Below are positions 15,054 through 62,967 of a DNA stretch of 64,000 nucleotides, one piece after another. A model generated the notes under the pieces. The model saw nothing but the letters and a program-made list of their open reading frames with translations. It was not told the origin of the DNA and searched no databases. The stretch comes from an uncultured Spirochaetaceae bacterium (GTDB lineage Bacteria; Spirochaetota; Spirochaetia; SZUA-6; DRHE01). Where the stretch lies: contig CAZVHJ010000018.1 in assembly GCA_964627715.1 (NCBI GenBank), positions 6,955 through 70,954 on the forward strand, written 5' to 3'. Made by a program: the position numbers and the translations under genes. Position 1 is the first letter of the stretch. Each line of letters begins with the position of its first letter.

Positions 15054-16070
15054 ATGACGGGTCTGGAAAGAACGCAAAAGGCCATGCGAATGGAGCCCAT
15101 CGATCGCATTCCAACGTTCCCGATTCTCATTGCTCCTGCTTGCCAACTCATAGGGGTCAAGCAGCGTGATTACTCACTCGATCCTGATGTGATGGCAGAC
15201 ACCTTGTTGAAAGCGAGAGATCTACTCGGCGCGGATGGAGTATACGTGTCCCGGGACAACTGGGTTTATCACCAGGCTTTGGGGGGAAACCTGATCTTTC
15301 CCGAGGATGAGGAGTCATACAGTAAGGAGCCAATTCTCGATTCGATCAAGGAGTTTCGCAAGTTGCAGATTCCGGATCCCGAAATTGCACCAGGAATGAA
15401 AACACTGCTTTCCGCAGCTAGGAAAGTCGTAGGGAAGGTCGGCGGTCAGTACTACATTCAGGCCAATATCGATTGCGGACCTTTTAGTCTTGCTGCAGTC
15501 TTGCGGGGTGCTCAATCGTTCTTACTGGACCTGGTAACGGAGGATGAGAAAGATCTCCACGAGTTCCTGGACTTCTGTAGCGAAGTAGTAATCGCCTATG
15601 GACGGGCGATGATTTCCACCGGGGTACACGGGATACAGTACGGAGACTCTACGGCGAGTTTGATCAGCCCCGAACACTACGAGAGATTTGTCCTGCCCTA
15701 CCAGCAGAAATCCGTTGACGCCTTAACGGGGAAAGACTGCGACATATGGATCCACATATGCGGTAATACCGAGCATCTCCTGCACTTTTTACGACCGCTC
15801 AATTTCCAGGGATTTGAGGTGGATGCAAAGGTTGAAATGGTGACGGCACGGAGACTCCTTGGAGACCGTGTCGCGATAAAGGGGAATCTGGATACGACTT
15901 TCTTACTAAAACAAAGCCCGGATGAGGTTTACGAAGCGACTCAACAAATCCTGCGCAGTGGGAACTTCAAAACCGGGATCATTATGTCTCCGGGCTGCGG
16001 AGTGCCCCGGATGACGCCCCTCAATAATCTACGAGCAATGGTGCAGGCTTGCGAAGATTACAAACTCTGA
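15054..16070 (+). CDS. URO-D-fold protein (MtaA/CmuA-like methyltransferase family), paralog P1
   Basis: 338 aa. N-terminal ERTQKAMRMEPIDRIP. HICGN (H-x-C-G) plus a later SPGCG Cys, resembling the MtaA-type Zn motif H-x-C...C. Confidence 0.75.
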   Translation: MTGLERTQKAMRMEPIDRIPTFPILIAPACQLIGVKQRDYSLDPDVMADTLLKARDLLGADGVYVSRDNWVYHQALGGNLIFPEDEESYSKEPILDSIKEFRKLQIPDPEIAPGMKTLLSAARKVVGKVGGQYYIQANIDCGPFSLAAVLRGAQSFLLDLVTEDEKDLHEFLDFCSEVVIAYGRAMISTGVHGIQYGDSTASLISPEHYERFVLPYQQKSVDALTGKDCDIWIHICGNTEHLLHFLRPLNFQGFEVDAKVEMVTARRLLGDRVAIKGNLDTTFLLKQSPDEVYEATQQILRSGNFKTGIIMSPGCGVPRMTPLNNLRAMVQACEDYKL

Positions 16071-16122
16071 CCATTTGCAAGCAGATAACAATTCGAATCC
16101 ATCTCCAGCTTAGCTCCCACGG

Positions 16123-17223
16123 TTAAAACGTCAGTTCTGTAAGCTGAAAATACTCCCGGTATGCGTTTACCATCGCTAGATAATTTTTTAAGGGAACGCT
16201 ATCTGTAATTGCATTACTGGCCGTGAAAATATGTCCCCCCTGTCCCCAGCCGGCTTCAAGAACTTCAAACGTTAGTTTTTTTATGCCCTCTGGCGTTTCA
16301 AAACTCAGGACATTGCCACAATCCATATTCCCGAAAAAAAGAATCCTGTCTCCAAAGCGGTTTTTTAGTGTTCCCAGATCCATTCCGGCGCTCATATCGA
16401 TTTCCAGATAGGCATCAACCTCGCAGCCAAACAGGAAATCGTCGATTACAGGCCAGATATCTCCATCCGTCGCGTTGACCGAATATGTCCCCGCCTCTCT
16501 GAGGCGTCGCGCACATATCCGAACCTCGGGAACGATGAACTCTCTGTAGGAATCGGGAGAAATCAGAAGGCGCCTACCGGCGAAATCTCCACCGATTCCT
16601 ACCATATCAATGCCGATCTCTATATAATCATCGATTACTTTGATTGCTCTTTGAGTCGCCAAAGAGAAATGTTGTTTCGCTACCTCCGGATCCAAAACCA
16701 TCACCTGCATAAGGTCTGCGTCGGTCCAAATCCCGTGAAAATAGGCCGGAGCCAGAATCGGAAGATCCAGATCTCTGCTCTTCATTTCTTCCCGAACGAA
16801 CTCATAAACGAGGTAACAGTCGCGGGGCAGCTCTCCCATCATAGATTCAGAAACCCGCAGGTTCCGCTCTCGAAGGCGCTCTACAGGGTCCCCTTTCTCT
16901 TTCAACTCGAAATGGCTGCCCAATTCATCCAGCGGGTCGTAGAGGTACGTTTCTCCCGGCACGGGGTTCGGGCTTAGACACAGCAGGTCATGCCCCAATC
17001 TCGAGGAAAGTTCCACCCGATCTCGGGCATACCGATGAAGCATACGTTCGAAACCGGCAGATTCGGCCGCGGCCAGCCATGGTTGCATCCCGCCAAGATA
17101 CTCCACGAAGGATCTGCCTAGAATTTTCTCCGCCACCGGCGGGAGTAAAACATATTCAAAAAAAGGGGTTCGGTCCGGTTGCTGGTGTTTGAAAGAAGCC
17201 CCTACTCGCTGTCGGGATGTCAT
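16123..17223 (-). CDS. URO-D-fold protein, paralog P2 (lacks the H-x-C motif)
   Basis: GGAAAGGA RBS 5 nt before the ATG at 17223; the ORF track ATG at 17241 abuts the ROK stop codon. N-terminal MTSRQRV...QPDRTP. NATDG occupies the H-x-C-G position. Confidence 0.7.
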   Translation of the reverse strand: MTSRQRVGASFKHQQPDRTPFFEYVLLPPVAEKILGRSFVEYLGGMQPWLAAAESAGFERMLHRYARDRVELSSRLGHDLLCLSPNPVPGETYLYDPLDELGSHFELKEKGDPVERLRERNLRVSESMMGELPRDCYLVYEFVREEMKSRDLDLPILAPAYFHGIWTDADLMQVMVLDPEVAKQHFSLATQRAIKVIDDYIEIGIDMVGIGGDFAGRRLLISPDSYREFIVPEVRICARRLREAGTYSVNATDGDIWPVIDDFLFGCEVDAYLEIDMSAGMDLGTLKNRFGDRILFFGNMDCGNVLSFETPEGIKKLTFEVLEAGWGQGGHIFTASNAITDSVPLKNYLAMVNAYREYFQLTELTF

Positions 17224-17241: not shown

Positions 17242-18441
17242 TCACTGAGTGAAGTAATCGTGCAGAATAACACTGCTGATGCCTTGAACGCGGATGTCGG
17301 ATTGTTCTTCCGAGTATACGATCTTCAAGAATTTTGCTATCTGCCGAAGACTTAAGTTCATCACAATTCTTTCGATCGTCTCGAAGAGAAATCGGTTTCC
17401 ATCTATCACAGGACCACGAAGAACGATCATCTCGGGATTAAAGATATTAGCTATATCCGCCAGTTTTTCCCCTAAATGACGTCCGGTTTGTTCGAAAACA
17501 TTACGGACCAGCCGGTCTCCGTTGTTGGCGGCTGTGACCAAATGCTCGATCTGCAGTTTTGAGAAATCATTATCACAGTACTTGAGTACTTCGCTGTTCA
17601 CGCCTTGATGGAGGCCATCTCTGACTGTAGAAAGGATGTACTGTTTGGAGCTGATCGTCTCCAGACAACCGGTGTGCCCGCAAAAACAGAGTTGGCCATT
17701 GTTGATGGCGTGGGTATGCCCGAACTCTCCTGCGTAGTAGCTGTTCCCCGCATATATTTCACCGTTTACGATGATTCCCATCCCTATTCCTTCACCCAAC
17801 CACACGCAAAGGAAATGTTCGATCCCCAAACCGCGCCCGTAATATTTTTCTCCGAGAGCACAGGCGTTGGCATCATTCACCAGAAAGCAGGGAATGTTGT
17901 ACTTCCTTTCAATTAGCTCTTTCAATGGGACGTCGTACCAGTTTTTGGCGAAAAGGTATTCATGGGATATACCCTGCTTTGGATCAATATATCCCCCCAA
18001 GCCTATACCGATCCCAAAAATCTTTTTCTCAAACTTTGAAGCCTCAGATACCAAACCGTCGAGCAGCTGCAGTAAGGCTGCGATCAACTCATCTTTGTCT
18101 ATACCAAAAAAAAGGGGGATCGAGCGCTGTGAGAGGATTTCACCTATCGTATTTATTAACACGCCTTTCATCTCCGAAACATCAAGCACAACCGCTATGT
18201 TGATACCCACCGCAGGGTTAAGTTCGATGAAGGTCGATCTTCTACCGCCGGTCGATAATTCCCGGTCTGTTTCCTGAATCAATCCAAGCTCCATCAGGAT
18301 CTTGATGTATTTCACTATTGAAGAAGGGCTCAGCCTTAGAATTTCTCCCAACCGGTTTCTGATTATCCTCTTGTTGTTCAGAATAGACTTCAGGATAGTG
18401 CTCATCCTGCTCTTCTGAATCGGCGAATATTCTGAGAACAT
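17242..18441 (-). CDS. ROK-family transcriptional regulator
   Basis: N-terminal winged HTH (RNRLGEILRLSPSSIVKYIKILMELGLI). ROK sugar-kinase-like core with the Zn motif HTHAINNGQLCFCGHTGCLE. Confidence 0.85.
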   Translation of the reverse strand: MFSEYSPIQKSRMSTILKSILNNKRIIRNRLGEILRLSPSSIVKYIKILMELGLIQETDRELSTGGRRSTFIELNPAVGINIAVVLDVSEMKGVLINTIGEILSQRSIPLFFGIDKDELIAALLQLLDGLVSEASKFEKKIFGIGIGLGGYIDPKQGISHEYLFAKNWYDVPLKELIERKYNIPCFLVNDANACALGEKYYGRGLGIEHFLCVWLGEGIGMGIIVNGEIYAGNSYYAGEFGHTHAINNGQLCFCGHTGCLETISSKQYILSTVRDGLHQGVNSEVLKYCDNDFSKLQIEHLVTAANNGDRLVRNVFEQTGRHLGEKLADIANIFNPEMIVLRGPVIDGNRFLFETIERIVMNLSLRQIAKFLKIVYSEEQSDIRVQGISSVILHDYFTQ

Positions 18442-18456: not shown

Positions 18457-19323
18457 CTATCCTTTCAAGGCACCCGCTGATATCCCGCTGATAAAATCCC
18501 TCTGCATCAACCACATGATCAACAAAACGGGAAATACAACGACGCATCCCATCGCAGCCATAGGTCCCCAGATCAAAGCTTTGTCCGTGATGAAACCCGC
18601 TATAAGCACGGTCAGCGGTTTTGACCTGTTTACAGTGAGAATGACGGCATAGAGAAACTCGTTCCAGCTATAAACAAAAGTAAGCATCCCCGTCGCAATT
18701 AAGCCGGACTTTACCATTGGTGTTGTAACGTACAGATATCTCTGCGGCAAGGTGCAGCCGTCCAACATGCTCTGTTCTTCCACTTCGAAGGGAGCCTCCT
18801 GGTAGAAACCGATCATCAGGAGAATCACAAGCGGAAGATTGAAGCTGGTGTTCATAATGACAAGGGAGAGAACGTTATCCATCAGCCGGAGGGAACGAAT
18901 GATATAGAACACAGGGACCGCAACGACGATAGCCGGATACATCTTTTGAACGAGAAACCAGCTGGCAAAGACCCCTTTTATCCTGCGGGGAAGAGCTCCG
19001 TTGATAAGAGCATATGAAGCCATGCTTCCGAATACTACGGTAAAGATCGTGGCTCCGGATGCAATCATGATCGAATTTATCAATCCTTTGAAAACTTCAT
19101 ACTTCTGCACGATATCGAGAAAATTCTGCCCTGTTATGCGGGAGGGAAACATAACTGGAGGATTGGAGAAATAGTCCTGCTCCAATTTGAAGGCATTGGT
19201 GATCATCCAGTAGAAAGGAAAAAGGATCACGATAAAGAGAATGACCAGGATGATGATCCGCGTAGGGAACCCGATGAAGTTGCTTAGATAACTCTGTCTG
19301 ACTCTTCTTGAACCAAGTCGCAT
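18457..19323 (-). CDS. Carbohydrate ABC transporter permease (MalG-like)
   Basis: The real start is the ATG at 19323, 2 nt after the upstream stop. The ORF-track N-terminal extension to 19767 overlaps the upstream permease in another frame. Multi-TM protein with an EAA-like loop (EEQSMLDGCTLPQRY). Confidence 0.85.
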   Translation of the reverse strand: MRLGSRRVRQSYLSNFIGFPTRIIILVILFIVILFPFYWMITNAFKLEQDYFSNPPVMFPSRITGQNFLDIVQKYEVFKGLINSIMIASGATIFTVVFGSMASYALINGALPRRIKGVFASWFLVQKMYPAIVVAVPVFYIIRSLRLMDNVLSLVIMNTSFNLPLVILLMIGFYQEAPFEVEEQSMLDGCTLPQRYLYVTTPMVKSGLIATGMLTFVYSWNEFLYAVILTVNRSKPLTVLIAGFITDKALIWGPMAAMGCVVVFPVLLIMWLMQRDFISGISAGALKG

Positions 19324-19325
19324 AG

Positions 19326-20231
19326 TTATCCCAGCCTCTTTAACTGAAAGCTTCTCAGGCGAATAAACACCCCGGCGATCAGTGACATGGCGATGATGAA
19401 TAAAATCGCCGTAGCAGATGAGTAGCCTACGTCGAGGAATTTTATTCCTTGCCTGTAAATATAGGTCGGCAACATCTCGGTTGCGTTGCCCGGACCTCCC
19501 TGAGTCATGACAAAAACCACGTCGAATATCTTGAAAGCATCGATGAAGCGAATCATGGCAACGATGATAATTACAGGCGACGTTATCGGCAGCACCACTT
19601 TTGTAAACACTTTCCATGGAGAGGCGCCGTCCACCCGCGCAGCGTCCAGGAAACTTTGGGGAATCGACTTGATGGATGAAAGCACCAACAGGGCTACGAA
19701 CGGAATAAACTGCCAGCAGTCTACAAAAACCACGGTGTATAGAGCGATGCGGTAGTCGCCGATCCACGACACCGGCGGGAGCCCCACAAAACTGAGCAGA
19801 TAGTTCACCACCCCGTAAGTCCTGTCAACCATCATCCGCCACAGCGTTCCTGAAGCTACGGGGGCTATGATCATGGGAACCATCAAAAAGGTTGTAAGTA
19901 CCCGGCTCATCCTGTTGTCGTCGGAAAGCATCATGGCCACCATGACTCCGATTACCAGCTCAATAGAAACAGAGAGCAGAGCAAAAAGAATATTGTTTGT
20001 CAGAGATTTAATAAAAATCTCGTCCCGAAACATGTTGAAGTAATTCTGCAGCCCGATGAATGCCGGTCTCGATGTGGCAATCGTCAGCTTGTAACGATGA
20101 AAGCTTAATACCAATCCGTATCCGAGGGGAATAAAAGCGGCAATCATCAGTACTACTACAACGGGCAGAAGAAACGCCCAAGACCAGATCCGGTCGGATG
20201 TGGTTTGGTGAATGCGTCTGGAAATCAGCAT
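19326..20231 (-). CDS. Carbohydrate ABC transporter permease (MalF-like)
   Basis: 301 aa with six predicted TM stretches and an EAA loop (LDAARVDGASPWKVFTKVVLP). Confidence 0.85.
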   Translation of the reverse strand: MLISRRIHQTTSDRIWSWAFLLPVVVVLMIAAFIPLGYGLVLSFHRYKLTIATSRPAFIGLQNYFNMFRDEIFIKSLTNNILFALLSVSIELVIGVMVAMMLSDDNRMSRVLTTFLMVPMIIAPVASGTLWRMMVDRTYGVVNYLLSFVGLPPVSWIGDYRIALYTVVFVDCWQFIPFVALLVLSSIKSIPQSFLDAARVDGASPWKVFTKVVLPITSPVIIIVAMIRFIDAFKIFDVVFVMTQGGPGNATEMLPTYIYRQGIKFLDVGYSSATAILFIIAMSLIAGVFIRLRSFQLKRLG

Positions 20232-20310: not shown

Positions 20311-21606
20311 CTACCTTCCTGTGTTCTTCACTCCCGGAGCAGGTGGATACTCCTCCAGAACCTTGGCGAGACCGGCCTCCATGAACTGCACCGACCTCTC
20401 CAGGTCCCACTGTCCGGTAACGTAATTGGCCACCGCGTCTCTGATTGTAGTCTCTGCCATCGTGCCGGCGGGGATCCGCCACCAGATGATCGCGCCCTGA
20501 TCGGAAGCTTTCTTGTGGGGATAGAGCTTGTCGTTCTTTACCTCCGGCTTCTCCCAGACAGACTGCCTGGAGGGCAGGATTGAGTAATCCGTGAAATTCT
20601 TGAGCTGTTTCTCCGCACTGGTGTAAAACTTTATCCACTCCCAGGCCGCATCTTTGTTTTTGGCCGCCTTGGGGATGCCGATGTCCCAGGAGGAGAGTAC
20701 AGTCACTCCATTTTTCGCATACGGTATGGGAGCGATTGCCCACTTATTCACAACCTTTGATTTCTCAGGGTTATCCCCATTAGGAGCAATGGACAGGGTC
20801 GGCCAGGAGAAAGCAATACCTGCATTACCGTTGAGGAAGGCGGCGTCCGATTCGGGCAGACCCCAAGCTGGAGCGGCAGGATCTGCGTAGTCAAACCATC
20901 GTTTCGTGATCTTCAGCGCTTCCCGTGTTTCCGGAGAATCTAAAGTAAGATTCCAATTCTCGTCAGCCCAGCGACCGCCGAGAGACCACTGCACCATCAT
21001 CCATAGACCACTGAGCTGTTCCTTCAAACCGGGAATGGCGATTGCATAGAGGTTTGGGGGATCGTGGATTTCCTCACAAACCTCAAAAAAATCATCCCAG
21101 TTCTCTGGAAACTCGTCTATCAAATCCGTACGGTAAGCTAAAGTTTGAGGTGTGTTGGAAAAGGGGAAGCCCATGATTTTTCCAGCCCACTTCCCGGACT
21201 GCTCCCAAAGCCCCGGCAAAAAGTCCGAAGTGTCGAAGTTATCCCGTTTGATGTAGGGCTCAAGGTCCTCCATGAAAGGCTCAAACTCACCGTCCCACTG
21301 ACAGGCGGGCGTGACAACATCGTATGTGCTGTCTTCCGTGGACAGGGCTAAACCCATTTTTTCATACAGAGTGAGGTACGGGAAGTCAACAACTTCAATC
21401 TCGCAGCCTGTTTTTTCTGTGAACTCCGCCGAATACTTTTTGGCGGCCTCAGCATAGGTTGCCGAGAAATAGAGTACGGTAATTTTCTGACCGGCGAAAG
21501 GCTTGCCCTCGACTGCTGTGGATGGTTCCTTCCCTCCCCCAGCGAAGGCGACAGTGGCAAGACCAACTACCAATACGATGGTTATCAGTATCTGGATCTT
21601 TTTCAT
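20311..21606 (-). CDS. Carbohydrate ABC transporter substrate-binding protein (family 1)
   Basis: AAGGAG RBS before the ATG at 21606. Signal peptide MKKIQILITIVLVVGLATVAFA|GGG. About 430 aa, W/Y-rich SBP-like sequence. Confidence 0.85.
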   Translation of the reverse strand: MKKIQILITIVLVVGLATVAFAGGGKEPSTAVEGKPFAGQKITVLYFSATYAEAAKKYSAEFTEKTGCEIEVVDFPYLTLYEKMGLALSTEDSTYDVVTPACQWDGEFEPFMEDLEPYIKRDNFDTSDFLPGLWEQSGKWAGKIMGFPFSNTPQTLAYRTDLIDEFPENWDDFFEVCEEIHDPPNLYAIAIPGLKEQLSGLWMMVQWSLGGRWADENWNLTLDSPETREALKITKRWFDYADPAAPAWGLPESDAAFLNGNAGIAFSWPTLSIAPNGDNPEKSKVVNKWAIAPIPYAKNGVTVLSSWDIGIPKAAKNKDAAWEWIKFYTSAEKQLKNFTDYSILPSRQSVWEKPEVKNDKLYPHKKASDQGAIIWWRIPAGTMAETTIRDAVANYVTGQWDLERSVQFMEAGLAKVLEEYPPAPGVKNTGR

Positions 21607-21739
21607 TGAAAAACTCCTTTTATAATTTTGGATTCTTTGGGTAGCTTCCCTTAAGGCTCTACTCGTGCCGGGACTGGCGCGAATCGAATTTTTCATAGAC
21701 ACCTCCTTGTCTCTGAAATGCTCTGTTGGGATGACTATG

Positions 21740-24205: not shown

Positions 24206-24382
24206 ATGGATAGCGGCAAAAAAGAGCTTCTCAAGAAAGCCGTGTCGCTGCACGGCAAAATCCTGCCGACGCGGACGCGGAGGTCTCTTGAGGAATGTTT
24301 CACAACCGAAGAGTCCAAACTCATATTCTGGTTCAACGACGAGACAGGGACAACCAAGGTGCTCATCAAGGAGCAAGCCTAG
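24206..24382 (+). CDS. Small hypothetical protein (58 aa)
   Basis: GGGAGGGG RBS 5 nt before the ATG at 24206. No recognisable motif. The stop overlaps the convergent symporter stop. Confidence 0.4.
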   Translation: MDSGKKELLKKAVSLHGKILPTRTRRSLEECFTTEESKLIFWFNDETGTTKVLIKEQA

Positions 24383-26028: not shown

Positions 26029-26059
26029 GGTTCCCTCCATTTTTGCGGCTCCACTCGGT

Positions 26060-53961: not shown

Positions 53962-54016
53962 ATCATCCTCCAAATATCGTTTTTCAAGCAAATTGCGTTC
54001 TCAGCCGCTGTATCCC

Positions 54017-56012: not shown

Positions 56013-56944
56013 ACGCCCCTCACTCTCCGCGTCTTGATGAGCTGCTTGAAAAAATAGAAGGTAAAGGCAATCGCAATCAGTACTGTGATGTAGCTCATCG
56101 CGCTACCGATGGCGAAGTTCTGGCTGGTAAAAGCCAAGCGGTATACATAGGTCCAGATCAGCTCAGTACGGTGGGCCGGACCGCCTCCTGTCATGATGCT
56201 GACCAGGTCGTAGGCTCGGGCTACATCCAAAGAGCGGACCGCCAGAGCGATGTAGATGAATGGTGCGACCGAAGGCACGGTCACGTGAATGAACTTCTGC
56301 CACTCCGTGGTTCCGTCCACCTCCGCCGCATCGATGATGTCGGGGGAAATCGACAGGATTCCAGCCAGGAAAATGATCACCATAAAAGGAGTACTCATCC
56401 ATATTTCGGCGACCAGTATTGTGATAAAACCGAGGGGTTTTTGGATGAGCCAGGGGATGATCATCGGCTCCTGAAAGATCTCGAACAGGATATTGTTCAC
56501 CAGGCCGACCTGATCGTTGAAGATCCACTTGAACTGAAATCCAACCAGGATCGGTGCAAACATCATCGGCATCATCAGGATGGTCCGCAGGATACCCTGC
56601 CCCCGCACCACGTGACTCATCGCGTTGGCGATAAAGAGTCCCAACACCAGTTCCACGTTTACCGTGATCATGATGTACAGCACCGTTCGTCCCAAAGCGG
56701 GTAAAAACACGGAATCCTGAAACAGCAGAACGTAGTTACGAAAACCTACGAATTTTGGAGCGGACTGGCTGACCAGGGTGAAATTGGTGAAGCTCAAGTA
56801 CAGGGAGTAGATCATCGGAAAGGCGATGACGAATATGATGAGCGCCGCTGCCGGAAGCAAGAGGAAAACCGGCAGGCGCCTCTCCTCCAGCATCACGGAG
56901 GAGTGCTTTTGTTTTTCTTTGTTCTGTTTCTCTTTGGCAACCAT
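56009..56944 (-). CDS. Carbohydrate ABC transporter permease (MalF-like)
   Basis: 311 aa with EAA loop (IIDAAEVDGTTEWQKFIHVTVP). GGAGAG RBS. Confidence 0.85.
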   Translation of the reverse strand: MVAKEKQNKEKQKHSSVMLEERRLPVFLLLPAAALIIFVIAFPMIYSLYLSFTNFTLVSQSAPKFVGFRNYVLLFQDSVFLPALGRTVLYIMITVNVELVLGLFIANAMSHVVRGQGILRTILMMPMMFAPILVGFQFKWIFNDQVGLVNNILFEIFQEPMIIPWLIQKPLGFITILVAEIWMSTPFMVIIFLAGILSISPDIIDAAEVDGTTEWQKFIHVTVPSVAPFIYIALAVRSLDVARAYDLVSIMTGGGPAHRTELIWTYVYRLAFTSQNFAIGSAMSYITVLIAIAFTFYFFKQLIKTRRVRGV

Positions 56945-57040: not shown

Positions 57041-58330
57041 TTAGTAGTAGCCTCTTTCCTTCATCATCGCTTCCACTTTGGTCGCCGCTTCATTCAGACC
57101 TGCCTTGGGGTCTTTGTCTCCCAGGATGATGGCCTGAACGATCGGATATACTATGTCGGAGGCGGGTAACCATTCCGCCACCAGGGGCGGGGTGCGGAAG
57201 TCATTGGCGGCCTGAAACTGAGCCAACTCAAGGCGTTTGGTATCCAGCTGGTTGCCGGCCGCTTTGGCGTCGGCGATAATCTTGTCCCACACCGAGTTGC
57301 GGGTGACCAAAAAGCCCAGGTTGGCCTCGGTCATCTGGCTGTCGGCACTGGTGATGAACTTGATGAAGTCCGCCGCCGTCTCTTTCTGCTGACTGGCTTT
57401 GGTGATGGAGAAGCTGTGTTGTCCAGCCCAGCCGCCGTGAATACCGGCATTCCCCCTAGGCTGGCGGGCGATGTCGAACAATCCGGCGGCCTTCGAGGCT
57501 GAAGGATCTTGGAAGTAGCTGTACCAGCCGTACCACTCGGTGTACATCACTATATTGCCGGCTACCCAGTTCTTGGCCACGTCCTCCCACACGAAGCTGG
57601 TCATGCCGGGCGGCATGGCACCGGCCTTATACAGATCCTGGAACATGGTAGCGGCCTTTACTCCACCGGGAGCATTGAAACCGGGCTTCCAGTTCTTGTC
57701 GAAGAACTCGGCGCCTTCGCAGGTCGATACCTCGTAGAACCGACCGGTCAGAGCTTCCTCTTTTCCAGCGAACTCCGTAGCATACACTCCAGCTGGCAGG
57801 TTCGGCTGCACTTTCAGAGCAGTGGCCTTGAACTCGTCCCAGGTTTCCGGAACTGTCAGGCCAAAATCCTGGAACAAATCGGTGCGGTAGTGCAGGCAGC
57901 TGATGTCGAAATGCCGCGGGATGATCCACAGCTTACCGTCCCGCTTGCCCGAATTGAGGATCATGGGGATGAAATCCTTCAAATCGTCCGTGCTGAAATA
58001 ATCATCCAGGGGTACAATCCCGTCTGCCTTGATATACTGGGTGAAGAAACTGGAGTGGTCCCAGCACACATCGTAGTCCACGGATCCGGCAGCGAAATCC
58101 GTCTTCAACTTCTTGTCGATCTGGAAGCCGTCTCCCTTGTAGACGATCTCTACTTTCATGCCCGTCTTGGCTTCCCACTTGGGGATCTCCTTGTAGAGCT
58201 CTTCATAATTCGCGCCGCCGATAAAGGCGCACTTCAGAACTGAGGGCGCCGCCGCTTCCTGTTTTCCGCCTGCAAAGGCAAAGCCGGCAACAAGCAGCAG
58301 AGCCAATGTGAGTGTTGGGAGTTTTTTCAC
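57041..58330 (-). CDS. Carbohydrate ABC transporter substrate-binding protein (family 1)
   Basis: AAGGAG 6 nt before the GTG at 58330. Signal peptide (M)KKLPTLTLALLLVAGFAFA|GGK. Confidence 0.85.
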   Translation of the reverse strand: MKKLPTLTLALLLVAGFAFAGGKQEAAAPSVLKCAFIGGANYEELYKEIPKWEAKTGMKVEIVYKGDGFQIDKKLKTDFAAGSVDYDVCWDHSSFFTQYIKADGIVPLDDYFSTDDLKDFIPMILNSGKRDGKLWIIPRHFDISCLHYRTDLFQDFGLTVPETWDEFKATALKVQPNLPAGVYATEFAGKEEALTGRFYEVSTCEGAEFFDKNWKPGFNAPGGVKAATMFQDLYKAGAMPPGMTSFVWEDVAKNWVAGNIVMYTEWYGWYSYFQDPSASKAAGLFDIARQPRGNAGIHGGWAGQHSFSITKASQQKETAADFIKFITSADSQMTEANLGFLVTRNSVWDKIIADAKAAGNQLDTKRLELAQFQAANDFRTPPLVAEWLPASDIVYPIVQAIILGDKDPKAGLNEAATKVEAMMKERGYY

Positions 58331-58448
58331 ACTTTTCTCCTTAAAATTTTTTTTCGTGGAAGCAGATGAGGCACAGGCGATCATCCGTTTCCCGTTGTAC
58401 CCACAATTTGTACCTTCATCACCTCCTCTCATTACAAACAACCGGCCC

Positions 58449-59507
58449 CTACCTGTAGGTACCGTACTCGGCGATGGTATCGAACATGGTCAAGACGTTC
58501 TCCAGGGGCGTTTCCTCCAGAATGGTATCGTGGCTAGCACCAGCCACGAAACCGCCACCCGGCTTCATGATGTCGATGACCTCTCTCGTCTTTTTACGGA
58601 CCAGCTCTGGAGTGCCCTTGATCAGGACATGGTGGGAGTCGATACATCCGTTGAACAGGATCCTGGCCCCGAACTCAGCCTTGAGGGAAACCAGATCCAT
58701 ACCCACACAGGAGGACTGGACCGCATGCAGTCCGTCCAATCCGGCTTCGATCATCGCCGGGATCAACGGTGCGAACCCGCCACAGCAGTGGAGCATCACT
58801 TTCAGATTATACTGATGACCCAGATCGATCAGCCGCTTCAAGTGGGGAAGGAGGAACCGTCGGAACAGCTCTTCTCCTACTAACGGCCCCATCTGACTAC
58901 CGAAATCATTGCCGATGAAGAAAATGTCGATCGCCTCTGCCGCGGCCTCAAAGGTTCTTCGGCTTACTTCGAAATAGAAATCAACGATACGAGTAAGCAA
59001 TGTATCGACAAAGTGAGAGTCGTCGTACAACTTGTAGTAGAAATTCTCCATCCCCACCAGATCGATGGCATCATGCCAGTAGGGAGCCCACTCACCGCCC
59101 AGGATTGCATACTTCCCCTCGTACAGCAGCGCATCATCCATCATGTGGGAAATACTGATCCAGTCGGGATCCGGCCAGGCGTATTCCTCGAGCTCCCGCA
59201 GAGTAGCTTCGGCCAGGGGATGGGAGCGGGGCTGACCATAGCCGATCCCGCTGCGCTCGATACCGAAGGGGGTGCGGTAGATCGAACCCTCGCTGAGATG
59301 CTCCACCGGGCTGTAAGCTTCCGGTCCGGCATATCGGGAGAAGACCCTGCGGAAATCATCGTGGAATCGAATTCGCAGAGCCTCATCGTCAAGCCCGAGT
59401 TCAAGCTTGGCCTTGTCCCAGAACTCCTGCGATGCGCCACACCAGGTGGGAACTCGATCGGGCTCCTCGTGGGCAAAAGCCGCCTTAACTCTTTCCCGCG
59501 AGGTCAT
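58449..59507 (-). CDS. URO-D-fold protein, paralog P5
   Basis: MTSRERVKAAFAHEEPDRVP N-terminus. LHCCGG (H-x-C-G). C-terminal PGGGFVAGASHD, with His where P1/P3/P4 have Cys. Confidence 0.75.
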   Translation of the reverse strand: MTSRERVKAAFAHEEPDRVPTWCGASQEFWDKAKLELGLDDEALRIRFHDDFRRVFSRYAGPEAYSPVEHLSEGSIYRTPFGIERSGIGYGQPRSHPLAEATLRELEEYAWPDPDWISISHMMDDALLYEGKYAILGGEWAPYWHDAIDLVGMENFYYKLYDDSHFVDTLLTRIVDFYFEVSRRTFEAAAEAIDIFFIGNDFGSQMGPLVGEELFRRFLLPHLKRLIDLGHQYNLKVMLHCCGGFAPLIPAMIEAGLDGLHAVQSSCVGMDLVSLKAEFGARILFNGCIDSHHVLIKGTPELVRKKTREVIDIMKPGGGFVAGASHDTILEETPLENVLTMFDTIAEYGTYR

Positions 59508-60550
59508 GCAATACCCCCATCCTTTTCTCGAACGGTCGATTCCCTGACGACAAGTTGGCAGGGGACCTTTGTACTGATTTTGGGGATCTTCTTTTTTTCG
59601 ATGAGCTTCATCAACAGCCTGTACGTTTGTTCGGCGAGCAGGCTTGTGGGCTGTTGTACAGAGGTAATGGGCACCCGCAGGTATTTGGTATAACGCTCAT
59701 CTCCGTAGCCGGCGACCAGGATATCTCGAGGAACCTTGATATCCTGCTCCCATAGAGCTACGAGAACGCCCAGTGCGATCTCGTCGTTTACACCCATAAC
59801 CGCCTCTACGCCCTGCAGCGCTCCATCTGCAATAAGCCGCCGGGCAATCTTGTAACCATCTTCCTGAAAGAATCCGCTCTCGAGAAACAGACGCTCATCT
59901 ACAGGAATCTTGTGTTCGCGGAACGCCTTCCAATAGCCGGCGATACGTTCGATAGTGACGCTGGTTTCTTTGTCCCCGCAGAGAAAGAGAATTTTACGGG
60001 CACCCTGCTCGATCAGGTGATTGACCAGGAGGTAACTGCCCTGCACGTCATCGCTGGTTACCGAATAAAAAGGCTTGTCGATAAAGTAACGATCGAGAAG
60101 GATCAGCGGGATGTTGCGGCTGCGGATGTCCTCGAGAAGCCCCAGGTTGTGCTGCCCCTTAGCCGGGGCTACGACAATTCCATTAACCCTCCGGGAGAGG
60201 ATCATTTCAATGGCTTTACGTTCCGGTTCCGGGTCCTCGTAGCTGTGGGCCAACAGGATGTCGTAGCCGGCTTCATCTAGCCTCCGACTCAGGTGATAGC
60301 AGATCTCATTAAAGAAGATCTGCATGATGTCCGGGATCAGCAGTCCGATGACCCGGCTGTCCTTCTGTACCAAATGACGGGCTAGAAAGTTTGGTCGGTA
60401 ATTTAGTTCCTTGGCTAAAGCGAGGATCTGTTGCTTGGTTTCCTCGCTAATATGGATTCCCTCATCTGCCTTGCCGTTGAGAACCCGAGACACCGTGGCT
60501 ATGCTCTTGTTGGCACGCTTGGCAATATCTGCCAGGGTCGCGTAGGGCAT
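59504..60550 (-). CDS. LacI-family transcriptional regulator
   Basis: ATLADIAKRANKSIATVSRVLNGK HTH plus a periplasmic-binding-protein-like core. Its start and stop codons overlap the flanking URO-D genes. Confidence 0.9.
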   Translation of the reverse strand: MPYATLADIAKRANKSIATVSRVLNGKADEGIHISEETKQQILALAKELNYRPNFLARHLVQKDSRVIGLLIPDIMQIFFNEICYHLSRRLDEAGYDILLAHSYEDPEPERKAIEMILSRRVNGIVVAPAKGQHNLGLLEDIRSRNIPLILLDRYFIDKPFYSVTSDDVQGSYLLVNHLIEQGARKILFLCGDKETSVTIERIAGYWKAFREHKIPVDERLFLESGFFQEDGYKIARRLIADGALQGVEAVMGVNDEIALGVLVALWEQDIKVPRDILVAGYGDERYTKYLRVPITSVQQPTSLLAEQTYRLLMKLIEKKKIPKISTKVPCQLVVRESTVREKDGGIA

Positions 60551-61776
60551 TAGACTACCGCCTCGAACATGGCAACGATATTCTCCGGGGGCACCTCCGG
60601 GAGGATGTTGTGAACCGTGTTGAAGACGAACCCACCGCCCGGAGTAAAGATCTCCAGCCGCCGCTTCACCTGTTCCTTCACTTCCCGGGGCGTGGCCCGA
60701 TTCAGAACATGACGGGTATCGACTCCACCCCCCCAGAACGTCAGATCTTTGCCGAACTCAGCCTTCAGTTTGGCCGGTTCCATATTTCTCGCATTGGTCT
60801 GTACAGGATTAATGATCTCAAAACCTGCTTCGATCAGGTGCGGGAGCAGCTCGTAAATCGATCCACAGGTATGGAGGAAGGTGTGCATTCGACTGTGCTT
60901 TTTTACGAAGTCGCACAATTTGGCGTGCCGGGATTTGAACAGCTTCTCATAGATCTCCGGCGGCATGAAAGGTCCCTGATCCATTCCCAGGTCATCCCCG
61001 AAGCGGGCGATGTCCACCAGATCCCCAACGGCGGTGCAGACCTTTTCCAGAAAGGAGAGATGCTGCTCCATTAGCGCATCGAGCAGCCGTTCCACGTTAT
61101 ACTGATCCGCTACTAGGTCCATCAGGAAGTTGTCCAATCTCCTCAAGAAACTCCCCCATTCGAAGAGATTGCACCCAACCACGATCATCAACGCCTGATC
61201 CATCGAATCTTTGAGCTGCAGAGTGCGGTTGCGAAGGGTCTTCCAAAAATCCGGTTCTGAAGCGTGATCCCAGGGACTGTGAACCAGGGCTGCCCAGAGG
61301 ATCTTGCCCATCTCCTCGGAAAGATTCTCGAAGGAGTCAGGATAGCCGTTGAGATAGGGGAAATAGGTCTGATCGAAGAATGTACCCTTGGACGGCATCT
61401 TCGCAATCACCTGCCCGCCGACCGAGGCTTCCCAGCTTCCGTCGGACTGCAGGACAGGTTGAAACCAGGACGGATACTGAGCTTTGCTACCGTCGGCCAA
61501 CTCAACGTCGTACCAGTCCGAATCCGCAGTGTTGAAGGTGCGACCGATATCCACAACATCGATTCCGAAGCGCTCCAGGATAAAATCCTCCGGCTGGGCG
61601 AGCTGCTGCACCACGTCGTACACCCGAGTGTGACCGCGGGTCTCACCCAGGTGAGCCTTCAGTCGACCATAGGCAATAGCCGAAATGCCGGAGCTTGGAG
61701 TGGAACCCAGATCCACCGGTACTCTATCCGGTTCCCTGTGGTCAATAGCGGCAAGAATCCGTTCCCGCGAAGTCAT
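60550..61776 (-). CDS. URO-D-fold protein, paralog P6
   Basis: AGGAGA 6 nt before the ATG at 61776. MTSRERILAAIDHREPDRVP, LHTCGS, and C-terminal PGGGFVFNTVHN. Confidence 0.75.
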   Translation of the reverse strand: MTSRERILAAIDHREPDRVPVDLGSTPSSGISAIAYGRLKAHLGETRGHTRVYDVVQQLAQPEDFILERFGIDVVDIGRTFNTADSDWYDVELADGSKAQYPSWFQPVLQSDGSWEASVGGQVIAKMPSKGTFFDQTYFPYLNGYPDSFENLSEEMGKILWAALVHSPWDHASEPDFWKTLRNRTLQLKDSMDQALMIVVGCNLFEWGSFLRRLDNFLMDLVADQYNVERLLDALMEQHLSFLEKVCTAVGDLVDIARFGDDLGMDQGPFMPPEIYEKLFKSRHAKLCDFVKKHSRMHTFLHTCGSIYELLPHLIEAGFEIINPVQTNARNMEPAKLKAEFGKDLTFWGGGVDTRHVLNRATPREVKEQVKRRLEIFTPGGGFVFNTVHNILPEVPPENIVAMFEAVV

Positions 61777-61797
61777 CCCCAATCTCCTGTTCGACCC

Positions 61798-62967
61798 TCA
61801 AACCAGTTCCGGAATGTCGTATTCGCCGAGATTCAGCGGGTATTTGCCGTACTCCCTCACCAGCTTGACCACATAATCGTAGTTCTTTCCGGATACGTTG
61901 CTGGGAACCGAATGATCGGACTGGAAGATAAAGCCTCCCCCCTTGGCGGCGTTCAGTTTCCTCAGAACCATCTTTTTCAACTCCTCCTCGCTCGCCTCAG
62001 CCCAGACCTGGACGTCCATGTTGCCGCAGAATCCGATTCTATGGCCGTAGGTTCGGCGAAGCTCTACCACGTCCAGTCCCGCTTTCGCCTCCAAGGGATT
62101 GTAGGCATCCACACCGATCTCTATGAAATCCTCGAATATCCGACTGACATTTCCGCAACCGTGATAAATCACCGGCAGCCCGCTTTCATGGCAGACGTCG
62201 ACAATCGCCTTCACACCGGGTTTGAAATGCTTGCGCCAATACTCGGGGGAGAACAGCATATCGTTTCTGTAGGCTACATCCCCCCAAATCACAATTCCGT
62301 CAAGCAATCCATCAGCTGCCTGGATCTGGGCCTTGGTAAGCTCGAGATTGAACTCGTTGACTCGTTGGACGAAAGCGGCCAGCTCTTCAGGATACAGACC
62401 GATCCAGAGCATGACATTTTCACTTCCGATGATCCGCCATAACTCCTCGTGGCCTTCACAAACCGAGCCGTACACGGGGAAATTAGGGTGAAGAGCTTTC
62501 ACCGTGTCGATCCAGGCCGGAAGGTCCCGGGCAAAGCCGTCTCCAACACCGGCCAGTTGGTTGTCCCCGCCCTTCAGGTACCGCCGATCGTCCCAGGGGT
62601 GGTCGAACTCGAAAGCCCGCATCTTCTCGATCGTATCCGTTTCGAACTTGAGAAAACGGGGCATGGGATCGGCGAACTTCTTCTGAATCACCGCCTCAAA
62701 CCCTGTGCGAACAACCACCTCCTCCTCGTTCTCGCTGATAATCTCGAAGCTCTTGATGTGGGGATCCATGTTGGGAATGGTTACGATCCAGTCCAGGTCG
62801 TAGTAAGTATAGATGTCGGTATCCGCCGGCAATCCCAGCTCCTCCTGCCAGCGCTTGATGAAGCTACCCCAGAAAAAATCGCTGATAGGAACCCGGTCCG
62901 CCTCTTCATGCTGGAGGGTTTTGGTCATCCGCTCTAGTTTCTCCCGGCATTTCTGCGTTCGTTCCAT
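61798..62967 (-). CDS. URO-D-fold protein, paralog P7
   Basis: GAGGGGGG RBS before the ATG at 62967. HEEADRVP, YHGCGN, and C-terminal KGGGFIFQSDHS. Confidence 0.75.
   Translation of the reverse strand: MERTQKCREKLERMTKTLQHEEADRVPISDFFWGSFIKRWQEELGLPADTDIYTYYDLDWIVTIPNMDPHIKSFEIISENEEEVVVRTGFEAVIQKKFADPMPRFLKFETDTIEKMRAFEFDHPWDDRRYLKGGDNQLAGVGDGFARDLPAWIDTVKALHPNFPVYGSVCEGHEELWRIIGSENVMLWIGLYPEELAAFVQRVNEFNLELTKAQIQAADGLLDGIVIWGDVAYRNDMLFSPEYWRKHFKPGVKAIVDVCHESGLPVIYHGCGNVSRIFEDFIEIGVDAYNPLEAKAGLDVVELRRTYGHRIGFCGNMDVQVWAEASEEELKKMVLRKLNAAKGGGFIFQSDHSVPSNVSGKNYDYVVKLVREYGKYPLNLGEYDIPELV

Follow-up and report, generated by a model that had tools for sequence, protein, structure and literature searches.

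Seven paralogs of the uroporphyrinogen decarboxylase family, methyltransferase-like by motif, lie within two sugar-uptake operons of a spirochaete

What do seven relatives of a haem enzyme do in a single stretch of spirochaete DNA? The window, meaning the whole stretch of 64,000 nucleotides that was analysed, encodes seven open reading frames of the uroporphyrinogen decarboxylase (URO-D) family, P1 to P7 (Table 1), as a first-pass annotation had proposed. Their PF01208 scores are far over the cut-off, by which chance is ruled out for all seven. ORF lengths match gene calls on independent contigs (366 aa for P2, 372 for P4, 352 for P5, 408 for P6 and 389 for P7). Pairwise BLASTP identities are 18–30% (34% for P2/P7, over a short stretch only), and on these identities the paralogs are old and anciently diverged. 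All seven genes lie within two conserved carbohydrate-uptake operons, here called module A (P1–P3) and module B (P4–P7).

Table 1. Features of the window in order of position
Feature	Positions	Strand	Match or remark
Pterin-binding methyltransferase, MeTr/AcsE-like	325–1332	+	PF00809, 86 bits
C1/redox cluster	1534–14951	+	Pfam and NCBIfam matches; same strand as P1, directly upstream
P1, most MtaA-like paralog, complete H-x-C...C triad (HICGN, SPGCG)	15054–16070	+	PF01208, 224 bits, full length
P2, paralog without metal motif (NATDG; distal TASNA)	16123–17223	-	PF01208, 64 bits, C-terminal half only
ROK-family regulator, N-terminal HTH, NagC/Mlc-like	17242–18441	-	PF00480, 184 bits
Two CUT1-type ABC permease genes (module A)	18457–20231	-	BPD_transp_1
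Extracellular sugar-binding protein (SBP), module A transporter	20311–21702	-	SBP_bac_1, 132 bits
P3, Cys-type paralog (HICGN, TGCL)	21897–22928	+	PF01208, 127 bits; MtaA, E 4e-13
AGE-family enzyme (N-acylglucosamine 2-epimerase / aldose-ketose isomerase family)	22934–24142	+	PF07221, 168 bits
Sodium:solute symporter flanking module A	24379–26040	-	PF00474, 147 bits
XRE-HTH + B12-binding_2 + B12-binding protein	27791–28771	-	Pfam; sole corrinoid-binding protein in the window
L-fucose isomerase fucI, bona fide, last gene of module B	52159–53991	-	NCBIfam fucI
P4 (H-T-C-G-G, D-H-F-F)	54017–55135	-	PF01208, 86 bits
Two permeases, module B transporter	56009–56944; 55146–56012	-	BPD_transp_1
Sugar-binding protein (SBP), module B transporter	57041–58441	-	SBP_bac_1
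P5, His-type paralog (H240-C-C242-G-G, H261, H326)	58449–59507	-	PF01208, 95 bits
LacI-family repressor	59504–60550	-	LacI and Peripla_BP domains
P6, His-type paralog (HTCGS ... NTVHN)	60550–61776	-	PF01208, 78 bits
P7, His-type paralog (HGCGN ... QSDHS)	61798–62967	-	PF01208, 77 bits
rhaM-family mutarotase, first gene of module B	63106–63435	-	PF05336, 121 bits

Homologues carry the database label 'uroporphyrinogen decarboxylase', as the Pfam family name would suggest, and genuine HemE enzymes of haem or sirohaem synthesis have to be considered. In P5–P7 a distal His occupies the alignment column, seven residues past a conserved Gly, in which P1 and P3 have their distal Cys and HemE the His of its G-H-G. 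However, the NCBIfam HemE cut-off of 303 bits was reached by none of the seven (best, P1 at 84 bits), the model was not listed for P2 or P4, and MtaA/CmuA models outscored HemE for all seven. HemE Arg37, Arg41 and Tyr164 are absent from P1–P7 in the alignment, and an Asp86 equivalent is found in P1 only. The window holds no haem-pathway neighbours, and there are seven copies, in sugar operons. A HemE role is exceedingly improbable, and the proposal that these are not haem-pathway decarboxylases stands.

The PDB comparison covered P1, P2, P3, P5 and P7 by sequence and P4 by profile. Wherever any solved structure was found the nearest was MtaA (4AY7), by sequence for P1, P2, P3 and P5 and by profile for P4 (E 1e-3); P7 had no PDB sequence match at E<0.1. 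P1 matched MtaA at E 1e-25, in an alignment where HICGN and PGCG correspond residue by residue, and scored 181 bits against the NCBIfam MtaA/CmuA model, under the cut-off of 235. MtaA was also the top predicted-fold match for P5 and P4. The family matches and model scores place P1–P7 in the URO-D/MetE-like (beta/alpha)8 superfamily, on the side of the corrinoid methyltransferases MtaA/CmuA.

After MtaA and UROD, the fold matches of the P5 and P4 models are MetE structures, and P7 weakly matches an archaeal MetE-like NCBIfam model. MetE and epoxyalkane:CoM transferase, both of this superfamily, work without a corrinoid (PMC10418091), suggesting that methyl or alkyl groups might be transferred directly, the metal activating a thiol or other acceptor, or tetrahydrofolate binding directly. 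Donor and acceptor halves could be split among paralogs, for example between a variable, sugar-specific one and a generic, very conserved P4 or P5. The modules always have at least two different paralogs, and P4 and P5 are unusually conserved (65–79% across phyla and contexts). However, Pfam Meth_synt matched none of the seven, and the conserved modules are without candidate thiol-cofactor or folate genes. Thiolate displacement of an unactivated sugar methyl ether is also, in our judgement, chemically demanding, and direct transfer of this kind is unlikely.

The motif strings that had been reported were all found in the translations, including the H-x-C-G variants, P2 NATDG at the same position, and C-terminal PGCG, TGCL and GGGF...H. 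An N-terminal ER...(P/E)DR.P pattern, said to be shared by all, holds for P1 and P4–P7 but not for P2 (RQR...PDRTP) or P3 (no match; KTSRFP). Because MtaA and HemE carry related versions, the pattern is family-wide and undiagnostic. The division into Cys-type and His-type paralogs needed one correction, in P4, which had been called Cys-type from its LSCT string. Of 120 close homologues, 86 have C at this residue and the other 34 have L, M or A; many of these 34 have a Cys two residues earlier. D-H-F-F, just past LSCT, is present in 120/120 close homologues and 15/15 genome orthologues, and HTCGG in 116/120. Since the Cys is variable and D-H-F-F invariant, P4 groups with P5, P6 and P7 as a His (Asp/His) type. 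All four non-Cys paralogs are in the fucose operon. The separate His-type subfamily that had been proposed does exist and is large, with 552 clusters (50% identity) at E<=1e-30.

Among 107 diverse representatives, His240 is nearly universal, Cys242 is usual and about 80 have His in the distal column; Gln or Asn replaces the distal His in about one quarter of diverse relatives. The P1 family keeps HICG in 118/120 homologues and SPGCGV in 115/120. In the P5 family HCCGG is found in 115/120 and (A/P)SHD in all orthologues, and the P7 group has H-G-C-G in 11/12 sequences and D-H in 12/12. Such conservation suggests that the metal motif is under selection in the P1, P4 and P5 families. In the AF2 model of P5 (pLDDT 92.7), His240 and Cys242 closely follow one strand and His326 comes two residues past the last strand, matching the aligned MtaA motif positions. 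A His/Cys site is a hallmark of the thiol- and alkyl-transfer zinc sites of MtaA and MetE, and the motifs point to putative zinc-dependent methyl or alkyl transferases. Zn-independent URO-D-type methyltransferases such as CdmB (PMC13222342) count against a Zn-based reading.

P2 lacks His, Cys and distal ligand, yet is 71–88% conserved and always paired with P1; TASNA is present in 3/3 orthologues and NATDG in 2/3, with no match in the third by text search. Natural LacI::P5-like fusion proteins (P0244, P0246) have degenerate ligands (HSAG...SHE; SSSG...SVD), suggesting reuse of the domain as a sensor. Some copies, above all P2, might lack catalytic activity and act as the sugar-binding or scaffolding partner of a catalytic paralog. 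We consider this quite unlikely, as P2 conservation fits a different catalytic mechanism equally well and the strongly conserved motifs of P1 and P3–P7 would be left unexplained.

In module A, P2 is convergent with P1 and opens a P2-ROK-ABC operon. The ROK regulator scores 227 bits against NCBIfam NagC, under the cut-off. The listed permease ORF 18457–19767 overlaps 19326–20231 and therefore probably has an internal true start; permeases of 288 and 290 aa occupy the equivalent position in the close relative L086. The order P1|P2-ROK-permease-permease-SBP is kept in L086, L088, L091 and L106, and the P1|P2-ROK-ABC|AGE neighbourhood recurs in these four and L107. Relatives of P3 are few, three at 93%, 90% and 61% identity and the rest at <=32%. 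The AGE-family gene directly downstream scores 365 bits against NCBIfam AGE, under the cut-off of 600, and is paired with a URO-D gene in L086, L088, L106 and L107. Symporter synteny extends to L086, L091 and L093. One P1 homologue sits amid GH29, GH20 and CE15 genes.

Module B, rhaM-P7-P6-lacI-P5-SBP-permease-permease-P4-fucI, is a single tight operon with gaps of -4 to 138 nt, in which lacI shares 1 nt with P6 and 4 nt with P5, and P4 lies 25 nt upstream of fucI. The fucI product scores 1094 and 1071 bits in NCBIfam, over cut-offs of 775 and 850, and has all three Pfam fucose-isomerase domains. rhaM also precedes P7 on contig L002, and the transporter gene order is the same on contig L001. 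rhaM and fucI, which flank P4–P7, went unmentioned in the first-pass annotation. P6 is the closest paralog of P5 (30% identity, 120 bits) and has only three orthologues in related loci. The P5 orthologous group comprises >6,300 90%-identity clusters, with 61–76% identity across about ten phyla, and P4 homologues across phyla are 73–92% identical.

The P5 orthologue was followed through 37 well-flanked genome loci. rhaM lies within 6 kb in 15/37, a GH29 or GH95 fucosidase is found in 11/37 and a second URO-D gene in 13/37. URO-D, rhaM and monosaccharide-type ABC transporter genes co-occur in Planctomycetota and others, and one P4 homologue follows a GH38 mannosidase. For P1, P2, P4, P5 and P7 a sugar context is found again in different phyla. 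The searched literature contained no report on the role of URO-D paralogs in sugar or fucose operons.

Corrinoid genes were examined in the window and around the homologues. The pterin methyltransferase scores 187 bits against the NCBIfam methyl-THF:corrinoid methyltransferase, under the cut-off of 259. Its 82% identical copy in L086 adjoins FolD, and in the window it has no adjoining corrinoid partner. To our knowledge all characterised members of this family use a corrinoid; if that is also true here, the methyl-transfer parts of the genome are scattered. The C1/redox cluster encodes two HdrA-like proteins, MetV, MetF, an HdrC-like protein, a 1491-aa HdrA2/GltD-like fusion, MvhD, small and large subunits of a Vhu-type [NiFe] hydrogenase and a HycI protease. 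MetFV, next to P1, had been suggested along with the pterin methyltransferase as a possible acceptor of a harvested methyl group. A tie of P1 to MetFV was not borne out, as the cluster adjoins P1 only in L086, is absent beside P1 in L087, L088, L106 and L107, and distant genomes keep P1 with P2-ROK-ABC-AGE and no MetFV nearby.

The window had also been said to lack a corrinoid carrier. It does encode one B12-binding protein, with W-x9-E-H (WMQNQVDVATEH) and E-x-H-x-x-G (EFHDIG), motifs that we take to mark CarH-type AdoB12 sensors. The product is probably a CarH-like regulator (light/B12 sensor) rather than a methyl carrier. In 80/81 genome loci the P5 orthologue had neither a corrinoid carrier nor a RACo activase or pterin methyltransferase within 10 kb, and none of these was found in any P1 or P4 context examined. 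In the sole exception, L084 (Anaerolineae), one strand carries P5-like (61%) and P7-like (79%) genes together with an ABC transporter and a canonical corrinoid protein of 211 aa. Because the same scan detected a classical cluster in L096, where carrier, URO-D, CobW and RACo adjoin one another, absence at the other loci is meaningful. This near-universal absence is a real objection to the corrinoid methyltransferase reading.

P1 is close to the MtaA/CmuA subfamily, a label that JGI gives to some homologues, and the pterin methyltransferase and MetFV lie upstream on the same strand. These genes could be ordinary three-component corrinoid methyltransferases for methoxy-aromatics, methylamines, methylthiols or methanol, coincidentally placed in sugar loci. 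However, the sugar context recurs across phyla, MetFV adjacency is confined to close relatives and neither a carrier nor an activase adjoins the genes. LacI and ROK regulators and the LacI::P5 fusions further link the genes to sugar regulation. This reading is very unlikely.

We consider the URO-D paralogs to be accessory enzymes of two conserved sugar-utilisation modules. Our leading explanation, a tentative one, is that a metal helps to strip O-methyl groups from imported sugars, which are then passed to the neighbouring isomerases. The adjacent ABC transporters or symporter would import a modified monosaccharide or short oligosaccharide, namely O-methylated 6-deoxyhexoses (fucose or rhamnose) in module B and an O-methylated hexose or hexosamine in module A. 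A metal, probably Zn, would be held on the C-terminal face of the barrel by H-x-C and a distal Cys (P1, P3) or His/Asp-His (P4–P7), and would bind and polarise the ether oxygen. A cob(I)amide nucleophile, either free cofactor or bound to a carrier protein whose gene lies in another part of the genome, would take the methyl. RhaM would equilibrate the anomers of the freed aldose, and the product of the next gene downstream would isomerise it (FucI after P4, AGE after P3). In this spirochaete the methyl group might pass to tetrahydrofolate via the pterin methyltransferase, after which MetFV-Hdr-Mvh might oxidise or reduce it.

In both modules a URO-D gene lies directly upstream of an aldose-ketose isomerase gene (P4-fucI, P3-AGE), which fits an order of unmasking, then isomerising. 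The hosts are mostly anaerobic glycan degraders and the window encodes NrdDG, both of which count for sugar demethylation, and the L084 carrier and the pterin methyltransferase without adjoining corrinoid partner are corrinoid hints in its favour. Against it are the 80/81 P5 loci without carrier, RACo or pterin methyltransferase, the sensor-like character of the only B12 protein in the window, and hosts labelled Pirellulales, Planctomycetaceae or Terriglobia, groups that include aerobes. P4 homologues 75–79% identical occur in fucose, mannoside and other contexts, which argues against narrow sugar specificity, and distal His replacement and the motif-free P2 argue against metal-based demethylation. 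As far as we know, cob(I)-mediated cleavage is without precedent for an alkyl (non-aryl) sugar methyl ether.

Missing corrinoid proteins, both near P5 and in the operons of the window, and lineages that include aerobes would also fit corrinoid-independent, metal-dependent sugar-converting enzymes. Here the URO-D barrel would have taken on another chemistry, with the H-x-C/His site as a Lewis-acid centre, for example isomerisation, epimerisation, dehydration or retro-aldol cleavage of free fucose, rhamnose or hexose. The smallest recurrent unit is P5 with rhaM alone, and a mutarotase implies that the substrate is a free reducing sugar. Invariant Trp, Gln, Asp, Glu and His residues are numerous in the P4 family, as is typical of sugar-binding pockets. 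Metal-dependent TIM-barrel sugar epimerases are among the weak fold matches, but at TM 0.35–0.47 these reflect generic TIM-barrel likeness. No superfamily member is known to us for chemistry of this kind, and a His/Cys site is typical of the MtaA/MetE class. With fucI in the same operon, no isomerase is missing. The functions listed for the superfamily comprise decarboxylation and the transfer of methyl or alkyl groups (PMC10418091). Sugar conversion by the paralogs is possible but doubtful.

Apart from an O2-dependent P450 (PMC6292453), the searched literature contained no sugar O-demethylase; the hosts of the URO-D paralogs are mostly anaerobic. By motif, these relatives of a haem enzyme are methyltransferase-like metal enzymes inside sugar-uptake operons, and the fucose operon, which carries P4–P7, is spread over many phyla of anaerobic glycan degraders.

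All seven open reading frames that the first-pass annotation assigned to the URO-D fold (P1–P7) were found, the motifs quoted for them are present in the translations, and the same gene lengths are called on independent metagenome and genome contigs. In Pfam each lies well above the PF01208 cut-off; the matches weaker than that of P1 mostly cover the C-terminal half of the model. Judged by their pairwise BLASTP identities of 18–34%, P1–P7 are ancient paralogs with no recent duplicates. The N-terminal ER...PDR.P pattern described for the whole set holds for P1 and P4–P7, is weak in P2 and is absent from P3; MtaA and HemE also carry a related pattern.

Positions of the paralogs and other features of the window. 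Scores are in bits; cut-offs are 23.9 for PF01208 (Pfam), 235 for TIGR01463 (MtaA/CmuA) and 303 for TIGR01464 (HemE equivalog).
Feature	Position	Strand	Scores or content
P1	15054-16070		PF01208 224 (full length); TIGR01463 181; TIGR01464 84
P2	16123-17223		PF01208 64; TIGR01463 58
P3	21897-22928		PF01208 127; TIGR01463 101; TIGR01464 50
P4	54017-55135	-	PF01208 86; TIGR01463 83
P5	58449-59507	-	PF01208 95; TIGR01463 72; TIGR01464 21
P6	60550-61776	-	PF01208 78; TIGR01463 42; TIGR01464 28
P7	61798-62967	-	PF01208 77; TIGR01463 43; TIGR01464 24
rhaM	63106-63435	-	PF05336, 121 bits
fucI	last gene of module B	-	NCBIfam 1094 bits, cut-off 775
B12-binding protein	27791-28771	-	XRE-HTH + B12-binding_2 + B12-binding (Pfam); about 5 kb from P3
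Pterin-binding methyltransferase	325-1332	+	about 14 kb upstream of P1; N-terminal extension about 85 aa
Co-directional C1/redox string	325-14951	+	pterin methyltransferase, two HdrA-like, MetV, MetF, HdrC-like, 1491-aa HdrA2/GltD-like fusion, MvhD, Vhu-type [NiFe] hydrogenase, HycI
Stretch without long ORF	26040-27790		about 1.7 kb
Two overlapping genes	41648-44454	-	enolase-superfamily protein (weak MR_MLE_C) and 500-aa protein (marginal DUF3604)
Anaerobic ribonucleotide reductase genes	46820-50315		NrdD, its radical-SAM activase, NrdR

The MtaA/CmuA models of NCBIfam outscore the HemE model for each of P1–P7, and all curated cut-offs are missed. P2 and P4 are not listed for the HemE model. 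In an alignment with HemE 6W2O, Arg37, Arg41 and Tyr164 (human numbering), which together with Asp86 we take to be substrate-binding or catalytic residues of HemE, are missing from all seven paralogs. P1 alone has Asp in the Asp86 column, a reading that is weaker for P2–P7 because their N-terminal halves align poorly. HemE identity of P1–P7 is rejected on the scores below cut-off and the absent substrate residues. The best solved relative by sequence is M. mazei MtaA (4AY7), with E values of 1e-25 for P1, 4e-13 for P3, 2e-6 for P5 and 2e-5 for P2. P4 and P7 have no PDB sequence match at E<0.1; the alignment of a P4-family profile with MtaA (E 1e-3) pairs their H-x-C motifs. The AlphaFold models predicted for P5 (pLDDT 92.7) and for P4 (pLDDT 77.7, moderately confident only because its alignment is shallow) match MtaA first, then UROD, then MetE. 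The reading of these proteins as MtaA-like rather than HemE is thus supported by the NCBIfam scores, by MtaA as best solved relative and by the missing HemE residues; a zinc methyltransferase mechanism is hypothesised for them. Whatever their chemistry, the database label 'uroporphyrinogen decarboxylase' is misleading.

The HICGN and PGCG strings of P1 align residue for residue with identical strings in MtaA, whose His and Cys are its Zn ligands (His240, Cys242 and Cys319 of MtaA). By alignment, the H-x-C...C triad is found in P1 and P3; in P4–P7 the H-x-C is paired with a distal His or Asp-His, and P2 lacks the motif. In a 114-sequence alignment the distal residue, Cys in P1 and P3 and His in P5, P6 and P7, falls 7 residues past a conserved Gly, in the same column as the G-H-G His of HemE. 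In the P1 family HICG is kept in 118/120 sequences and SPGCGV in 115/120. In the P5 family HCCGG occurs in 115/120, every orthologue has (A/P)SHD, and G-L-D-G-L-H-A-V-Q supplies one more His; P7 orthologues have H-G-C-G and S-D-H. Among close homologues in the P4 family, HTCGG occurs in 116/120 and D-H-F-F in 120/120, against 86/120 for the 'LSCT' Cys. The overall observation of the first-pass annotation is real but needs correcting: its Cys-type group stands for P1 and P3 and its His-type group for P5–P7, whereas P4, placed with the former, was misassigned. Since the 'LSCT' Cys of P4 varies and its D-H-F-F does not, P4 is grouped with P5–P7. On these alignments the corrected split is P1 and P3 as Cys-type, P4–P7 as His or Asp-His type, and P2 without a motif.

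The His-type group is large: searching a 50%-identity library with P5 returned 9,202 matches at an E value of 1e-3 or below and 552 at 1e-30 or below. In the 107 full-length top representatives, His240 (P5 numbering) is near-universal and Cys242 is usual, with Asp instead in about 15; the distal column, His326 in P5, is never Cys, being His in about 80 and Gln in about 21. Two homologues from the search, P0244 and P0246 (699 and 695 aa), are natural fusions of a complete LacI repressor with a P5-like domain, and H-x-C and the distal His are degenerate in both. Their P5-like domain may have taken on a new role as ligand sensor. LacI::P5-like fusions are the only domain fusions found, and they confirm the regulatory link, not the chemistry. 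P2 and these fusions with degenerate ligands suggest that some copies are non-catalytic.

Module B is a single tight minus-strand operon comprising rhaM, P7, P6, lacI, P5, a sugar-binding protein, two permeases, P4 and fucI. P5 orthologues are 61–76% identical across many phyla (Spirochaetota, Planctomycetota, Latescibacterota, Hydrogenedentota, Anaerolineae, Acidobacteriota, Verrucomicrobiota, Lentisphaerota, Kiritimatiellae, Bacteroidota and Omnitrophota among their hosts), and the closest match among genomes, at 91%, is in a Spirochaetales MAG. A unit of URO-D(P4-like)-rhaM-URO-D(P7-like)-URO-D(P5-like) with a monosaccharide-type ABC transporter recurs in related loci and often adjoins GH29 or GH95 fucosidases, sulfatases and symporters. 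For the 37 loci in which a P5 orthologue is flanked by at least 4 kb on either side, context was counted by simple ORF calling and BLAST probes. rhaM lies within 6 kb of the orthologue in 15/37, a fucosidase in 11/37 and a second URO-D gene in 13/37; at least one of rhaM, fucosidase, second URO-D and fucI is found in 23/37. A family of 424–477 aa proteins, whose tested representative has no Pfam match, also recurs beside P5 orthologues (L022, L043, L056, L065 and L085). P4 homologues are 73–92% identical across phyla. One of them (79%), in a 2.19-Mb genome record (L109 4413-11116), ends an SBP-permease-permease-GH38 alpha-mannosidase operon directly after GH38, so that P4-type enzymes are not confined to a fucose context. 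P6 relatives are few in the fetched data.

Module A runs from P1 through P2-ROK-permease-permease-SBP and P3-AGE to SSF. P1 homologues in several lineages keep the arrangement of P1, P2-ROK-ABC and AGE, and one sits among GH29, GH20 and CE15 genes. P3 relatives are few in the metagenome scan and the wider context of P3 is thin. A URO-D gene upstream of AGE at L093 6344-7352 resembles a chimera of P1 and P3: identity to P1 is 76% over the N-terminus, and over the remainder it is about 58% to P1 and 60% to P3. At L106 1-5862, some 4 kb away from a module of P1, P2-ROK-ABC and AGE, is a bacterial-microcompartment locus encoding BMC shell and EutN-type proteins, short-chain dehydrogenases and an aldehyde dehydrogenase. 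The literature searched yielded no paper that describes fucose or glycan loci with URO-D proteins, and the main text of a fucoidan-Planctomycetota paper does not mention these proteins (PMC11685898). The cross-phylum tie of the paralogs to fucose and other sugar operons is a noteworthy result, undescribed in the searched literature. It shows that fucose and other sugar-utilisation loci have as a fixed component members of a very large enzyme group (thousands of clusters, with 65–79% identity over about ten phyla), and it points to a conserved step of anaerobic fucose-glycan degradation.

Glycans of algae, plants, cyanobacteria and bacteria commonly contain O-methylated sugars, which block catabolism. 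In both modules an aldose-ketose isomerase gene lies immediately downstream of a URO-D gene. Because family placement, metal-type motif, LacI/ROK regulation, transporters, mutarotase and isomerase combine in this way, the paralogs probably pre-process an imported, modified sugar. The known chemistries of the URO-D superfamily are decarboxylation and methyl or alkyl transfer (PMC10418091). The sole sugar O-demethylase in the searched literature is an O2-dependent P450 (PMC6292453), no paper there describes anaerobic sugar O-demethylation, and the hosts of the paralogs are largely anaerobes. For these reasons metal-assisted O-demethylation of methylated sugars, predicted from sequence and context, is the favoured reading, although we hold it tentatively.

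Of the three-component O-demethylase set (MT I, corrinoid protein, pterin-binding MT II and RACo), only the pterin methyltransferase is present in the window besides the paralogs, and no corrinoid protein adjoins it or any of P1–P7. The earlier statement that the window has neither a corrinoid carrier nor an activase holds for RACo and carrier proteins, but one B12-binding protein is present. This protein has W-x9-E-H and E-x-H-x-x-G motifs, which we take to be those of CarH-type AdoB12 sensors (four-helix bundle and Rossmann B12 domain). On the match with these motifs it looks like a CarH-like regulator. It was set aside as the missing methyl carrier on its motifs and HTH; NCBIfam is ambiguous, with 62 bits for MtgC-type corrinoid proteins against 47 bits for CarH, both below cut-off. 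Its HTH is of XRE rather than MerR type, a non-MerR DNA-binding domain on a CarH-like protein in a probable anaerobe. Rfam and tRNA scans of the window gave no match and no cobalamin riboswitch.

A BLAST probe of 81 loci found no corrinoid protein near P5 orthologues. Scanning 1.44 Mb of loci and the window for D-x-H-x-x-G...S-x-L...G-G gave 14 matches, two of them genuine-looking and confirmed by Pfam. One belongs to a classical carrier-URO-D-CobW-RACo cluster around a distant relative (L096). The other comes from an Anaerolineae MAG (H23_313; L084 1-9662), where an operon encodes a canonical 211-aa corrinoid protein and an ABC transporter together with P5-like (61%) and P7-like (79%) proteins, two more paralogs and a member of the creatininase family; among the P5 loci, a carrier protein was found in this one alone (1/81). 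Gene neighbourhood therefore gives a single hint of corrinoid involvement and otherwise no support for it. The carrier-free neighbourhoods suit a close rival, a new sugar chemistry that is independent of corrinoids, which we consider slightly less likely than O-demethylation. Two of the four URO-D paralogs in the Anaerolineae operon have H-x-D in place of H-x-C.

The C1/redox string that begins with the pterin methyltransferase looks like an H2-linked methylene-THF reductase system; in a relative (L086) the string is shorter and rearranged and lies beside FolD. MetFV had been noted as lying next to P1. This adjacency is present in the window and in one close relative, but distant genomes keep P1 with P2-ROK-ABC-AGE and MetFV is not nearby. 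Since the MetFV/hydrogenase cluster accompanies P1 only in the close relative, the adjacency is treated as lineage-specific, and MetFV-Hdr-Mvh was downgraded as the functional partner of P1. Elsewhere in the window, the NrdD genes are consistent with an anaerobic host. The stretch without a long ORF contains three consecutive minus-strand small ORFs of 117–120 aa with no Pfam match, and shows neither Rfam nor tRNA matches nor notable repeats. The two overlapping minus-strand genes are a further side observation.

If the favoured O-demethylation is correct, URO-D-fold metalloenzymes of anaerobic glycan degraders would cleave the methyl ethers of fucose, rhamnose, mannose and related sugars, and the freed methyl groups would enter C1 metabolism or H2 production in sediments. 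In its broadest form the proposal casts P4/P5/P7 with RhaM, and separately P1/P2/P3 with AGE, as the missing sugar O-demethylases that work without oxygen; they would form a widespread, unrecognised class of URO-D-fold metalloenzymes in anaerobic glycan degraders with several paralogs per module and mostly no dedicated corrinoid carrier. So broad a claim is held a little more tentatively still. Demethylation, if true, would tie glycan breakdown to methyl-group (C1/H2) fluxes in anoxic sediments.

Among known systems, HemE/UROD shares the Pfam family and the (beta/alpha)8 fold (TM 0.63–0.70 for the P5 and P4 models), and P5–P7 have a His in its G-H-G column. The paralogs lack its R-Q-A-G-R motif and have another genomic context; HemE is not known to need a metal. 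The methylcobamide:CoM methyltransferases MtaA/MtbA/MtsA have the same fold and are the best sequence or profile match for P1–P5 and the best predicted-fold match for P5 and P4. The alignment of H-x-C-G is exact, and the distal P-G-C / G-C Cys is likewise common to MtaA, P1 and P3. However, identity to MtaA is only 22–26%, the hosts are bacteria rather than methanogens, no cognate corrinoid protein adjoins the genes, the distal Cys is replaced by His or Asp-His in P4–P7, P2 has no motif, and the genes lie in sugar rather than methylotrophy operons.

MetE and epoxyalkane:CoM transferase carry out alkyl transfer at an H-x-C...C(E) zinc site. They belong to the same superfamily as URO-D (PMC10418091), and MetE gives the next-best fold matches, at a TM of only about 0.45–0.53. 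MetE-like direct transfer, another close rival of O-demethylation, would draw on this kinship. The paralogs have one barrel against two in MetE and no homocysteine or CoM context, none of the seven matches Meth_synt_1 or Meth_synt_2 in Pfam, and the one MetE-like NCBIfam match is weak (P7, 22 bits). We regard direct transfer as improbable.

The favoured O-demethylation has its physiological parallel in the cytochrome P450 that demethylates 6-O-methyl-D-galactose of porphyran in aerobic marine bacteria and thereby lifts the block that this methyl ether puts on sugar catabolism (PMC6292453; PMC9400963). The P450 has an unrelated fold, needs O2 and yields formaldehyde, whereas the route of the paralogs would be O2-independent. 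The acetogen MT I enzymes (the O-demethylases OdmB/VdmB and the chloromethane dehalogenase CdmB, PDB 9RUI) are bacterial members of the same superfamily, in which some URO-D-type methyltransferases have Zn and some do not (PMC13222342). Similarity to CdmB is marginal (E 1e-3 for P1, E 0.9 for the P4 profile), their substrates are aryl methyl ethers or halomethanes rather than sugars, and known systems of this kind have MT I, corrinoid protein, MT II and activase; in the classical cluster (L096) the carrier and RACo genes are adjacent. These enzymes nevertheless move a methyl group from substrate to corrinoid, which makes them the closest functional analogy for the role proposed here.
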